Shown piece after piece: positions 2,838-39,235 of a DNA stretch of 64,000 nt. The translations under genes were made by a program, and so were the position numbers. The DNA comes from Escherichia coli (GTDB taxonomy: Bacteria > Pseudomonadota > Gammaproteobacteria > Enterobacterales > Enterobacteriaceae), in assembly GCF_003018115.1 (NCBI RefSeq), contig NZ_CP027457.1. One strand, given 5' to 3'. Each line of letters opens with the position of its first letter. Within the stretch, counting starts at the first letter, position 1. Below the pieces are notes generated by a model that had not been told where the DNA came from, ran no database searches, and saw only the letters and a list, made by a program, of their open reading frames with translations.

Positions 2838-4118
2838 ATGAAGAAAATAAGTTTAACCACGATGATTCTTTTGGCGCTGGTACTTGGAATGATTATCGGC
2901 GTAGTGCTCAATAACACTGCTTCACCGGAAACCGCAAAACTCTATGCGCAAGAAATATCGATATTCACGACGATTTTCTTACGACTGATAAAAATGATTA
3001 TCGCTCCGTTAGTGGTCTCTACCCTGGTGGTAGGTATTGCTAAAATGGGCGATGCCAAAGCCCTTGGTCGTATTTTTTCTAAAACACTTTTTTTATTTAT
3101 TTGCGCCTCATTGCTGTCAATTGCCTTAGGCTTGATAACGGTAAATTTCTTCATGCCAGGCACAGGAATTAATTTTGTTGCACACGGTGCCGAAACCACA
3201 GGAGTGGTCGCGTCAGAACCCTTTACGCTAAAAGTATTTATTTCGCATGCTTTCCCCACCAGCATTGTCGATGCCATGGCGCACAATGAAATTTTGCAAA
3301 TCGTGGTGTTCTCAATTTTCCTCGGCTGTAGCCTGACGGCGATTGGCGAGAAAGGCAGCGCCATCGTTCACGCCTTAGATTCGCTGGCACATGCCATGTT
3401 AAAGCTCACTGGCTACGTCATGCTCTTCGCTCCCCTGACCGTATTCGCCGCTATTTCAGCATTGATTGCTGAACGAGGACTGGCCGTTATGGTGAGCGCC
3501 GGGATCTTTATGGGTGAATTTTATTTCACCATGTTATTACTTTGGGTGCTGCTTATCGGTCTGGCCATCGTTTATGTCGGCCCCTGCATCAGACGCCTGA
3601 CCCGCGCCCTTTCGGAACCCGCCCTGCTGGCATTTACCACATCCAGTTCTGAAGCGGCTTTTCCGGGAACGCTTGAAAAACTGGAGCAATTTGGCGTTTC
3701 CCCCAAAATTGCCAGCTTTGTCTTACCCATTGGCTACTCATTTAATCTCGTTGGATCAATGGCCTACTGCTCCTTCGCCACAGTTTTCATCGCCCAGGCC
3801 TGCAATATCCATTTATCCATCGGTGAACAAATCACCATGCTGTTGATCCTGATGTTGACCTCGAAAGGAATGGCTGGCGTACCACGCGCCTCAATGGTGG
3901 TTATCGCCGCCACGCTCAACCAGTTCAATATTCCGGAAGCGGGGCTGATCTTGCTGATGGGCGTTGATCCGTTCCTTGATATGGGGCGTTCCGCGACAAA
4001 CGTCATGAGCAACGCAATGGGCGCTGCGATGGTGAGTCGGTGGGAAGGCGAACATTTCGGCGAGGGCTGTCGGGGTAAAGCATTAAAACCCAATGAATCG
4101 AACGTTGCTCTGCCCTGA
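2838..4118 (+). CDS. dicarboxylate/amino acid:cation symporter (DAACS family, DctA/GltP-like), 426 aa
   Basis: ATG at 2838 preceded by GGAGG. Highly hydrophobic multi-helix protein with DAACS-like segments; the longer ORF from 2817 is probably an upstream extension. Confidence 0.8.
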   Translation: MKKISLTTMILLALVLGMIIGVVLNNTASPETAKLYAQEISIFTTIFLRLIKMIIAPLVVSTLVVGIAKMGDAKALGRIFSKTLFLFICASLLSIALGLITVNFFMPGTGINFVAHGAETTGVVASEPFTLKVFISHAFPTSIVDAMAHNEILQIVVFSIFLGCSLTAIGEKGSAIVHALDSLAHAMLKLTGYVMLFAPLTVFAAISALIAERGLAVMVSAGIFMGEFYFTMLLLWVLLIGLAIVYVGPCIRRLTRALSEPALLAFTTSSSEAAFPGTLEKLEQFGVSPKIASFVLPIGYSFNLVGSMAYCSFATVFIAQACNIHLSIGEQITMLLILMLTSKGMAGVPRASMVVIAATLNQFNIPEAGLILLMGVDPFLDMGRSATNVMSNAMGAAMVSRWEGEHFGEGCRGKALKPNESNVALP

Positions 4119-4225: not shown

Positions 4226-5878
4226 ATGTCCAAACCATTTATCTGGCAAGAACCGTTTCTACAAAATAAAGACGGTACAGAATATACATTAATTAGCGAT
4301 CAGCATATTACAGTAACGGAATTAGACGGCGAAGAAGTGATAAAAATCGCTCCTGAAGCATTAACGCTGCTTGCCCGGCAGGCATTTTATGAAGCCTCTT
4401 TTTTCTTACGTTCCGCTCATTTGCAACAGGTCGCCAGCATTCTTAACGATCAGCAGGCCAGTAGTAATGATAAATACGTTGCGTTGCAGTTATTACGTAA
4501 TGCTGAAGTCTCAGCAAAAGGGGTATTACCCAACTGTCAGGATACCGGCACCGCAACTATTGTTGCCAGTAAAGGGCAACAGATATGGACCGGAGGTAAC
4601 GACGCTGAAGCCTTAAGCAAAGGCATTTACAGTACTTTCCAGGAAAATAATCTGCGCTTTTCACAAAATGCGCCGCTGGATATGTATACCGAAGTCAATA
4701 CGCAAACCAATCTCCCGGCGCAGATTGATATCAGCGCTGTCGCTGGTGATGAGTACCATTTTCTCTGTGTTAATAAAGGGGGCGGCTCCGCCAATAAAGC
4801 CGCGCTTTATCAGGAAACCAAATCCTTATTGCAACCAGAAAAACTGACCGCATTTTTAATCGAAAAAATGAAATCGCTGGGCACCGCTGCCTGCCCGCCT
4901 TACCACATCGCCTTTGTCGTCGGAGGGCTTTCAGCCGATCAAACCTTAAAAGTTGCCAAGCTGGCCTCAACGAAATATTACGACAATTTGCCCACCAGCG
5001 GAAACGAGCAGGGACAAGCATTCCGTGATATTGAGCTGGAAAAAGCGTTGCTCGAGGCCAGTCAGCAATTTGGTATTGGTGCACAATTTGGGGGGAAATA
5101 TTTCGCTCATGATATTCGCGTCATGCGTCTGCCGCGTCACGGTGGCTCTTGCCCGATAGCTATGGCGCTCTCCTGTTCTGCCGATCGCAATATCAAAGCA
5201 AAAATTAACAAACACGGTATCTGGCTGGAAAAACTCGAACACAATCCGGGGCAATATATTCCAGCCTCATTGCGGGAAGAAAATCACGCGCAACATGTAC
5301 AACTGGATCTAAACCGTCCGTTGCGTGACGTGATGCTGGATCTCGCCAGATTACCGGTAGGCACCCGCGTGTCGTTAAGTGGTCCCATCGTAGTGGCGCG
5401 CGATATCGCCCACGCCAAAATAAAAGCGCGGCTGGATAGCGGCGAATCGATGCCGGAGTACCTGAAGCATCATATTGTCTATTACGCTGGCCCGGCGAAA
5501 ACACCGGAGAACATGGCCTGCGGTTCACTGGGTCCAACCACGGGCGGTCGAATGGACGGTTATATCGATACCTTCCAGGCGGCTGGCGGCAGTCTGGTGA
5601 TGTTATCGAAAGGTAACCGCAGCCAGCAGGTCACCGATGCCTGTCACAAACATGGCGGCTTCAATCTGGGAAGTATTGGCGGTGCTGCTGCGTTACTGGC
5701 GCAAGAATATGTCAAAAGTCTGCGTTGCCTGGAATATCCGGAGCTGGGTATGGAAGCGGTGTGGATGATGGAAGTGGAAAATCTGCCCGCATTCATCCTG
5801 GTAGATGATAAAGGCAATAATTTCTTTAGTCAGTTTGAGCAGCAACACCGCTGCGCCAGTTGCCCTGCGGGACATTAA
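4226..5878 (+). CDS. fumD: class I (Fe-S) fumarate hydratase paralog, 550 aa; candidate mesaconase (FumD-like)
   Basis: Near full-length similarity to E. coli FumA/FumB as I remember them (WQEPF, GVLPxCQDTGTA, [41 protein letters not shown], GSLGPTTxGRMD). The symbol is from my memory of a described O157:H7 mesaconase and is not verified. Confidence 0.75.
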
Positions 5879-17239: not shown

Positions 17240-17415
17240 GTCACCCGTAGGCCTGATAAGACGTGTAAGCGTCGCATCTGGCATCGCTTGTCGGATGCGG
17301 CGCGAGCGCCTTATCCGACCTACATCGGTGCTTCCCGTAGGCCTGATAAGACGCGTTAAGCGTCGCATCAGGCTTCAATTGCCGGAGAAAGCAATAATGT
17401 CTTATCCGGTCTACA
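17240..17415. repeat. cluster of REP (repetitive extragenic palindromic) units in the sucB-sucC intergenic region
   Basis: Repeated GCCTGATAAGACG...CGTCGCATC(A/T)GGC and GCCGGATGCGGCG...CCTTATCCG palindromic units. Confidence 0.7.
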
Positions 17416-21647: not shown

Positions 21648-21768
21648 ACGCCTGATGCGCTGCGCTTATCAGGCCTACGGGTAATGACTTGTAGGCCGGA
21701 TAAGGCATTCACGCCGCATCCGGCACTGGTTGCCTGATGCGACGCTTGCGCGTCTTATCAGGCCTACG
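21648..21768. repeat. REP units in the sdhB-sucA intergenic region
   Basis: Palindromic GCCTGATGCG/CGCATCCGGC-type units read directly. Confidence 0.65.
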
Positions 21769-32262: not shown

Positions 32263-32413
32263 CTTGCCATGATGCCCTTTGCAGCCGGAAAGGGCATCTC
32301 TTTCAGAAAATTGCTGATTTTCCCCTTTTCCTTGATTGCTGTTATTTTTTCCTGGCCCGGCTTTCTTTATGCTGTATCGATACACCAAAGAGAAAATAAT
32401 GAGGGAGCAAAGG

Positions 32414-33460
32414 ATGCCAGTTTTGCAGTGGGGAATGTTATGTGTGCTATCACTTCTCCTTTCTATTGGTTTCCTCGCGGTACATCTCCCGGCGGCATTA
32501 TTACTTGGGCCGATGATCGCCGGGATCATCTTTAGTATGCGCGGGGTTACCCTGCAACTCCCCCGCTCCGCTTTTCTCGCCGCGCAGGCCATTCTTGGCT
32601 GCATGATTGCGCAAAACTTGACCGGTTCGATCCTGACCACGCTGGCGGTTAACTGGCCGATTGTGTTAGCTATTTTACTGGTGACGTTGCTTTCCAGCGC
32701 TATCGTGGGATGGCTACTGGTGCGCTATAGCTCACTGCCCGGAAATACTGGTGCCTGGGGCTCCTCGCCTGGCGGGGCGGCGGCAATGGTCGCGATGGCG
32801 CAGGATTACGGCGCAGATATCCGCCTGGTGGCGTTTATGCAGTATCTGCGAGTGCTGTTTGTCGCGGGGGCCGCAGTTCTGGTCACGCGAATGATGCTGG
32901 GCGATAACGCTGAAGCGGTTAACCAGCATATCGTCTGGTTCCCGCCAGTGAGCATTAATCTCCTGCTTACTATTTTGCTCGCGGTCGTTGCCGGTACAGT
33001 GGGATGCCTGCTGCGTCTTCCTTCCGGCACGATGCTCATCCCGATGCTTGCGGGCGCAGTGCTCCAGTCTGGTCAGCTCATCACCATCGAACTACCGGAA
33101 TGGCTGCTGGCGATGGCGTATATGGCAATTGGCTGGCGGATTGGTCTTGGTTTCGATAAACAAATATTACTGCGGGCATTGCGCCCACTGCCACAAATCC
33201 TGCTGTCGATTTTTGCTCTGCTGGCTATTTGTGCGGGTATGGCGTGGGGACTGACCCGGTTTATGCACATTGATTTTATGACTGCCTACCTCGCCACCAG
33301 CCCCGGCGGGCTTGATACCGTGGCGGTCATCGCCGCAGGGAGCAATGCCGATATGGCGCTCATTATGGCGATGCAAACCCTGCGCCTGTTCAGTATTTTG
33401 CTGACTGGGCCTGCCATTGCACGGTTTATTTCGACCTATGCGCCGAAGCGGTCGGCCTAG
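32414..33460 (+). CDS. abrB: AbrB-family membrane protein (putative regulator), 348 aa
   Basis: Start placed at MPVLQWGML; polytopic hydrophobic protein; synteny with nei. Confidence 0.8.
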
Positions 33461-34248
33461 TGCTGGCAGCCTGGACACCAGTAAAACGGGCGCGAGGACA
33501 ACGTGGTTTTCTCAATGATGCCGCCACAGCGTTCGCACAGTTCGCCATCACGATGAAAAACCTTAAAGCGAAACAGCGCCCCATGATGCTTATTCTCATC
33601 CACCTGCCCCCGCGTAGCGTAAGAAAATCGAGGAATCTCCAGTAACGCGTGTGCGAGTGCATCCAGTTGCGCCGCATTGAGATCTTTCGCTTTATGATTT
33701 CCAGTCAACCCAACCTGCCAGAGGATCTCCACCCGCAAATAATTGCCAAGTCCTGCCAGAAACGCCTGATCGAGCAGTAATCCAGCAAACTGACGGTTAC
33801 GAAAGCGCGGCGACAATAACCGTTCTTTCACCACCTCCGGCGTCAGATTCGGATCCAGCACATCGGGACCAACGCGTTGTAAAAACGGATGCGTGGTCAG
33901 TTGTTCCGGCCTCAACATCTCAATATCCGAGGCGCTATAAAGCAGAATGGTTTTGTCAGCCGTTTGCAGTTTTACCCGCAATACTCGCGTGGTCTGCGAC
34001 TCTTCGCCGGTATCAACCACGCGCCAGACGCCATAAAGCTGATTATGGCTGTAGAGCGTTAAGTCGTTGGAAAAATGAGTTAACAACGCCTTACCACGCG
34101 TTTCCACATGGGTAACGTGTTGACCGATAAGTTGTGATTGATAAGTTTTTAACTGCGGGAAGGCAAACCAGACATCAGTTAGTGGTTTGCCTTTGATCGC
34201 CGCCTCCAGGTTATCCGCTGCACGGCGGATCTCCGGGCCTTCAGGCAT
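33457..34248 (-). CDS. nei: endonuclease VIII (DNA glycosylase/AP lyase), 263 aa
   Basis: N-terminal [18 protein letters not shown] (Fpg/Nei catalytic P2-E3) and C-terminal zinc finger [25 protein letters not shown]. Confidence 0.9.
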
Positions 34249-34283
34249 GGTGATATCCTTTTTTCATTCTTTATTAATCGGGG

Positions 34284-35018
34284 TTATGCTGCGACAACAA
34301 TCCCCTTTTCGGCAAATGCAGAGCGTAGTCGGCGGGCGAACGCCAGTGCGTGCTCGCCGTCGCCATGCAGGCAGACCGTTTGCGCCGTGACCGTTGCCCA
34401 TTCGCCGGTGATACTTTTGACTCTGCCGTGTTGCACCATCTCCAGCGTTTGCGCCAGCGCCTGTTCTTCGTTTTCAATCAACGCGCCTGACTGGCTTCGC
34501 GGCACCAGCGAGCCGTCAGCCTGATAACCGCGATCGGCAAACACTTCCTCGCGCGTTGTCAGACCATATTGCTTGCCTGCACGAATCAGCTCGCTTCCTG
34601 CCAGCCCGACGAGAATCAATGCCGGATCGCAAGCGTATACCGCTCTGGCGATGACGTCTGCCAGTTGTGCTTCTTTCGCCGCCTGGTTGTACAACATGCC
34701 GTGCGGTTTGACATGACGCATTACGCCGCCTTGCGCACGGGCAATCGTTGCCAGCGCGCCAATTTGATACAGCGTCTGGGCGTAAACGGTTTCTGGCGGC
34801 AGCTGCATAGCGCTGCGACCAAAATTTTCCCTGTCGGGAAAACTCGGATGAGCGCCAATCGCGACACCATTTTTTATTGCTTCACGCACGCAAGCCTGCA
34901 TGGTTTGCGCATCGCCTGCATGAAATCCACAGGCAATATTGGCAGAGGAAACCAGCGTTAATAGCTCTGCGTCACTGGTGCAGCCTTCGCCCAGATCGGC
35001 GTTCAGGTCAATTTTCAT
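34284..35018 (-). CDS. pxpA: 5-oxoprolinase subunit A (LamB/YcsF family), 244 aa
   Basis: [13 protein letters not shown]-terminus typical of LamB/YcsF; overlaps pxpC. Confidence 0.85.
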
Positions 35019-37443: not shown

Positions 37444-39108
<1,665 letters not shown>

Positions 39109-39119
39109 TAGGCCAGCAC

Positions 39120-39235
39120 CGATGCCTGATGCGACGCTTGACGCGTCTTATCAGGCCTACGTATTTCCTGCAATTTATTGAATTTGCACAAATTTGTAGG
39201 CTGGATAAGGCGTTCACGCCGCATCCGGCATCTGG
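39120..39235. repeat. REP units between dtpD and phr
   Basis: GCCTGATGCGACGCTTG...CGTCTTATCAGGCCTAC and GTAGGCTGGATAAGGCG...CGCATCCGGCA palindromes. Confidence 0.65.

Follow-up and report, generated by a model that had tools for sequence, protein, structure and literature searches.

The genes abrB and nei converge in the 64,000-nucleotide stretch of Escherichia coli DNA analysed here (the window), and their coding sequences run into each other at their 3' ends, raising the question of whether this overlap serves a regulatory purpose or is simply the closest approach of two neighbouring genes. Read directly, window positions 33450-33462 are ggtcggCCTAGtg. On the plus strand, abrB ends with ...TCG GCC TAG, its stop codon occupying 33458-33460, and on the minus strand nei ends with ...CAG CAC TAG, its stop codon occupying 33459-33457. 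These two opposite-strand coding genes, arranged 3' end to 3' end, have exactly 4 bp in common, CTAG, which reads TAG on either strand, and both stops lie inside this single YTAR tetranucleotide (Table 1). A preliminary description of this DNA had reported a 4-bp stop overlap here; the sequence and the open reading frames agree on it, and the RefSeq annotation is identical. The same 4-bp overlap is annotated by RefSeq/PGAP in every other E. coli record inspected that has both genes intact, including K-12 TOP10, FDAARGOS_943, MG1655 (nei 745935..746726 +, abrB 746723..747769 -) and one divergent clinical strain (93.6% identity). The 2-kb nei-abrB region was found in 5424 of 5426 complete E. coli genomes, and across nei-abrB the window aligns colinearly with MG1655 at 96.2% identity, without a single indel. 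Over positions 32300-34300, the window shares 96.2-96.4% identity with K-12, while its best match among the 5426 complete genomes, FDAARGOS_943, reaches 98.7%; judging from these K-12 and best-match identities, the lineage of the window appears poorly represented among them. The overlap itself is already known, being annotated in RefSeq, belonging to a textbook class and involving a pair named in a 2025 survey.

Table 1. Features of the window discussed in the text, with the basis on which each was assigned.
Feature	Position	Strand	Basis
abrB CDS, 348 aa, AbrB-family inner-membrane protein	32414..33460	+	ORF list, profile matches, PGAP colinearity
nei CDS, 263 aa, endonuclease VIII	33457..34248	-	NF007763 equivalog, annotation
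Palindrome CTAG common to both genes (first three bases, nei stop in complement; last three, abrB stop)	33457-33460		
Weak terminator-like hairpin GTGGGC-GCAAT-GCCCGC, then AGTAATATTT	33162..33188	-	Pattern scan
C-rich, G-poor stretch (C 0.35, G 0.15), including 33147	33097..33176	-	Composition
Two C>G stretches (C/G ~2), antisense in nei	33521..33780	+	Composition
Rfam hit, first by coordinate	17250-17320	-	
Rfam hit, second by coordinate	21694-21764	+	
Rfam hit, third by coordinate	39153-39195	-	

The most trivial explanation would be an annotation artefact, in which either abrB or nei stops sooner than annotated or is spurious, leaving no true overlap. AbrB lends this idea some colour: it matches PF05145 with 324 bits over residues 29-339 of 348, so that its last 9 residues fall outside the Pfam domain, and the last two or three of these are variable. 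However, stop codons are set by the sequence and not by an annotator's choice, the length of the AbrB tail is conserved in species with the overlap and in species with a gap, and both proteins give strong family matches. AbrB is also matched by TIGR03082 ('membrane protein AbrB duplication'), which together with PF05145 covers nearly all of the protein. Nei matches the endonuclease VIII equivalog NF007763 with 503 bits, against a cut-off of 252, over residues 1-263 of 263; its zinc-finger motif CPGCQH extends to the very end of the protein, and Nei is equally long in all 80 loci compared. The artefact reading, to which we give almost no credence, is effectively already refuted.

Mechanically, the abrB frame is open from a TTG at 32336, and the equivalent of the annotated start is the one given in Table 1. 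PGAP names the product 'AbrB family transcriptional regulator', and AbrB was named as a regulator of the alkylation-inducible gene aidB; the protein resembles a polytopic membrane protein, and 'regulator' is probably a legacy misnomer. As for nei, it is the final gene in the same-strand run ybgI-pxpB-pxpC-pxpA-nei, and the nei operon is said to be the subject of a paper by Gifford and Wallace from 2000.

Two real convergent genes that share four bases belong to a recognised class. Only the tetranucleotides CTAA, TTAA, CTAG and TTAG allow convergent stops to interlock, and owing to them the length distribution of convergent overlaps jumps at length 4 (Lillo & Krakauer 2007, PMC2174442). The same study counted 58 convergent overlaps in E. 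coli and 1890 across 58 genomes, 1218 of which span at least 5 nt, leaving about a third at 4 nt or less (PMC2174442). Applied to E. coli, these figures suggest, by our estimate, that ~20 of its 58 convergent overlaps are of the 4-nt kind. The abrB/nei junction has the geometry of the 4-nt class, with two real opposite-strand genes whose stops interlock in CTAG, and would count among the 58 E. coli cases; nothing substantive sets it apart from that class, its one peculiarity being the use of CTAG, the rarest of the four tetramers in the window. In K-12, the 50 kb around the locus hold three convergent junctions, phr/dtpD at +149 bp, nei/abrB at -4 bp and sdhX/mngR at +2 bp. Judged against the published count and this 50-kb K-12 sample, the abrB/nei overlap is no more than chance would produce.

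Two side observations belong here. At the third of these junctions, MG1655 765050-765153 is the sRNA SdhX at the 3' end of sucD, terminating 2 bp from the stop of the convergent mngR, and a Rho region antisense to mngR at 765604 has also been reported (Adams et al. 2021, PMC7815308). Just two copies of CTAG are present in the 64-kb window, at 33457 and 36514, where base composition would predict 249 and a second-order Markov model 38; the abrB/nei junction accounts for the first of them. Avoidance of CTAG is well known in E. coli, and the window is poorer in it than the genome average would suggest.

How stable the arrangement is was seen by scanning one genome per species, which yielded 80 nei loci. 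Nei has 263 residues and an unchanged stop position in all 80, and abrB is convergent to it only in Escherichia, Salmonella and part of Citrobacter. The 4-bp overlap is kept in six of six Escherichia-lineage loci and in seven Citrobacter loci. Five of the six Escherichia loci use CTAG, E. albertii and one Citrobacter use CTAA, and TTAG and TTAA occur in other Citrobacter loci, so that the 14 overlapping loci together use all four YTAR variants. Among the genera having the pair, spacing ranges from -4 to +75 bp, with gaps of 6 bp in Salmonella enterica arizonae, 54 bp in S. enterica diarizonae, 25 bp in C. sedlakii and 75 bp in one C. amalonaticus; two Citrobacter loci have ~0.9 kb and another gene between nei and abrB. 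These gapped Salmonella and Citrobacter loci encode the same two proteins at full length. The AbrB tail is as long in the overlapping species as in S. arizonae with its 6-bp gap, only its last two or three residues varying, and neither reading frame is over-extended, the C-terminal lengths of AbrB and Nei being the same with and without the overlap. As a refutation, the preliminary description had named relatives with a shorter abrB or nei and a clear gap, and a gap (6-75 bp) is indeed present in Salmonella and some Citrobacter. This demonstrates that the overlap is dispensable, not that the window lacks it.

In most other Enterobacteriaceae, the gene opposite nei is gltA (427 aa, citrate synthase, PF00285), +41 to +390 bp away. 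In K-12, ybgD-ybgQ-ybgP-ybgO-abrB lies between gltA and nei, on the gltA strand, an order consistent with insertion of this block into an ancestral nei/gltA junction. Other genes also lie close to nei. Five Citrobacter loci have a gene for an AraC-family regulator whose end is 2 bp away from the nei stop (around position 3795 in the extracted loci), and in a Pluralibacter MAG a homologous AraC-family gene overlaps nei by 10 bp (around position 3783 in the extracted locus), indicating that different convergent genes have abutted the nei 3' end more than once. The 54-bp spacer of S. enterica diarizonae (locus positions 3793-3846) includes ...TGCCTGGTGGCGCTACGCTTATCGGGCCTAC, which we take to be a REP (repetitive extragenic palindrome) unit, and the S. 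arizonae spacer consists of only 6 bp.

We consider it highly probable that abrB/nei is a minimal-spacer junction of two unrelated convergent genes, the overlap of their transcripts being a by-product with probably little regulatory effect. The geometry itself accounts for the interlocking of the stops. Read from the other strand with a shift of one base, the nei stop (TAR) and the pyrimidine before it, the final letter of the last nei codon (His, CAY), again spell TAR; the abrB frame arrives in that register and so is closed by the complement of the nei stop, with both proteins keeping their normal length. The terminal residue of Nei is His (CAY), replaced in E. albertii by Arg (CGC), and the R that closes the nei stop lies opposite the wobble position of the last AbrB codon, which always ends in Y. 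The abrB stop thus survives as long as the final base of the last nei codon stays a pyrimidine, and CTAG, CTAA, TTAG and TTAA interconvert by doubly silent transitions, in keeping with the variation observed; finding all four YTAR variants is the pattern that neutral synonymous transitions would be expected to leave. The shared bases comprise only stop-codon bases and the synonymous third position of each gene's last codon, so the overlap would carry no cost, and it would persist since any further deletion would damage a protein. With AbrB tails equally long in overlapping and gapped loci, the overlap arose through loss of spacer DNA and not through protein extension. It is the tightest packing that keeps both proteins intact, not a shared coding segment, and purifying selection on the two stops combined with a deletion bias suffices to account for it, with no need to invoke a regulatory function. 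The overlap thus appears neutral, as far as sequence comparison can tell, and its retention in every sampled Escherichia species could also reflect selection.

With no spacer left, the question becomes how transcription of either gene is brought to an end. Because the stop codon of each gene has to be part of its mRNA, the two transcripts must share 4 nt or more, and since a terminator has no room between the genes the true overlap must be longer. The antisense overlap of transcripts put forward in the preliminary description agrees with a Rho region mapped in K-12 and with the ExcludonFinder survey, both of which are detailed below. At or near 33457-33460, a pattern scan found neither an intrinsic nor a bidirectional terminator, and on both strands the folding of the junction is no stronger than that of shuffles (z-scores of +0.69 and -0.41), so that both kinds of terminator were rejected for the junction itself. 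The locus shares with bidirectional intrinsic terminators its genomic position, between two converging genes, but not their structure, a G+C-rich hairpin with an A-tract on one side and a U-tract on the other being absent between abrB and nei. No Rfam family was detected at the junction either; the gathering-level hits of the window, two to naRNA4 (RF02564, REP-derived nucleoid-associated RNA) and one to the ES036 sRNA (RF02751), are all distant (Table 1).

With no intergenic DNA between them, abrB and nei lack terminators of their own, and RNA polymerase leaving nei would proceed ~300 nt antisense into abrB, to be stopped mainly by Rho acting on untranslated RNA. In K-12, a bicyclomycin-sensitive Rho termination region has been located at 747036 (+), antisense to abrB (Adams et al. 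2021, PMC7815308, Supplementary file 2). This position lies 310 nt beyond the nei stop and corresponds, mapped without indels, to window position 33147. Without bicyclomycin, 68 reads fall upstream of it and 30 downstream; in the presence of the drug the counts are 75 and 95, which gives a Rho score of 2.87 (p 7.6e-5), a modest value obtained at 800-nt window resolution, and nei-strand reads are low in K-12, at 68 per 800 nt (PMC7815308). The window has C-rich, G-poor RNA in the same zone, 281-360 nt downstream of the nei stop (Table 1), and since this RNA is antisense to abrB it is untranslated. The locus thus resembles published cases of Rho-dependent termination of antisense read-through (PMC7815308) in its bicyclomycin-sensitive region 310 nt past nei and in its C-rich, G-poor composition, but with a modest score, low resolution and coverage of the nei strand only. 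None of the four supplementary files of that study has an entry under the name 'nei'. In a different data set, SMRT-Cappable-seq, the supplements mention neither nei nor abrB.

Alternatively, nei transcripts might end not through Rho but at an intrinsic terminator lying antisense in abrB. The pattern scan returned a candidate, a 7-pair stem at 33188-33172 followed by AGTAATATTT, ~270-295 nt beyond the nei stop and just upstream of the Rho position, and the stem is worth -11 to -13 kcal/mol in the window, in K-12 and in three of six other Escherichia loci. Its T-rich tail, however, makes a poor U-tract, terminator-like hits are in only modest excess across the region (8, against 3.4 +/- 1.8 in shuffles), bicyclomycin increases read-through in K-12, and no curated Term-seq 3' end has been reported within MG1655 746500-747099. 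Moreover, an intact stem is missing from E. whittamii, Escherichia sp. MOD1-EC7003, E. albertii and every locus of Citrobacter and Salmonella. We regard termination of nei at this hairpin as rather unlikely; as a conserved nei terminator the hairpin was rejected, its intact form being confined to the window, to K-12 and to three of the other six Escherichia loci.

Rho-dependent termination also offers a plausible fate for the opposite strand, where abrB transcripts would probably end in like manner within nei. From 33460 to 34445 (~1 kb), the pattern scan found no terminator-like site on the plus strand, and the two C>G stretches, 61-180 and 201-320 nt downstream of the abrB stop, are candidate Rho entry sites on untranslated abrB read-through RNA. 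Adams et al. 2021 (PMC7815308) report no Rho region on the abrB strand, which may be due to poor expression of abrB. The antisense overlap of the two mRNA 3' ends would then be a by-product of compaction, and at low expression it would probably have little regulatory effect.

Does this overlap of transcripts nevertheless matter for expression? The pair 'nei-abrB' is listed among 165 convergent excludons of MG1655 in Table 1 of the ExcludonFinder survey (NAR 2025, PMC12288877), a pair being listed when 50% or more of the samples show overlap of its RNA-seq-defined transcription units. Compared with other neighbouring genes, excludon pairs as a group are less co-expressed in single cells and more syntenic, and validation by p19 dsRNA is not feasible for convergent pairs (PMC12288877). 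Our locus conforms to these convergent excludons (PMC12288877) in being listed itself and in having the termination signal of one gene inside the other; it differs in that the overlap reaches the coding sequences and not UTRs alone, and mutual exclusion, the defining property, is putative here. A functional convergent excludon would be one in which the overlap was selected for mutually exclusive expression, through RNA polymerase collision and/or RNase III cleavage, and it could link DNA-damage repair by nei to AbrB. The survey listing, the class-level single-cell and synteny results, the ~310-nt read-through into abrB documented in K-12 and the retention of the overlap across Escherichia all speak for it. 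Against it, reciprocal expression of nei and abrB was not found in the literature, the statistics being class-level only; both genes are retained in Salmonella and several Citrobacter but are separated there by a 6-75 bp gap or an intervening gene; abrB is absent from the nei site in most Enterobacteriaceae; low expression suggests that collisions would be rare; the junction has no conserved RNA structure; and one natural E. coli strain carries a P2 prophage within the 3' end of abrB. On balance, we find a functional excludon improbable.

A related idea would make the nei-abrB overlap a selected cis-regulatory switch, in which a highly transcribed ybgI-pxpBCA-nei operon silences abrB, or the reverse. 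Such a switch would couple oxidative DNA-damage repair to AbrB-dependent control of aidB. It owes what plausibility it has to the overlap of the transcripts in K-12 and to an arrangement that is fixed across Escherichia, and we hold it to be very improbable. As to the transcriptional interference for which the preliminary description saw scope, it is a possibility at abrB/nei, and probably a functionally negligible one.

The abrB/nei overlap is therefore ordinary tight gene packing, with no sign of a special function, and in that sense it matters little. As a minimal-spacer junction, it nonetheless provides an example of spacer deletion halting where two convergent stops interlock, and convergent pairs of this kind must depend on termination within the neighbouring gene. 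It also has practical consequences, since any recoding or engineering of either amber stop must respect the partner gene, and indels at the 3' end of abrB or nei affect the other; TTAA, already present in natural Citrobacter sequences, is a silent substitute for CTAG in both genes.

Finally, in E. coli OkiPb01694, the P2 prophage mentioned above, 33.7 kb long, sits within abrB ~95 nt upstream of the stop, at the equivalent of window positions ~33355-33368, with junctions at 4566-4583 and 38336-38350 of the extracted locus. It splits abrB into a 957-nt pseudogene and a 108-nt remnant, and the remnant keeps the 4-bp overlap with nei. An abrB split in this way by a prophage was seen in 1 of 5424 genomes. 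A literature search on secondary attachment sites of P2 returned nothing; the insertion point may, we presume, be one of the classical ones. The attP rebuilt from the two OkiPb01694 junctions matches the annotated attP of phage P2 at 98.8%.
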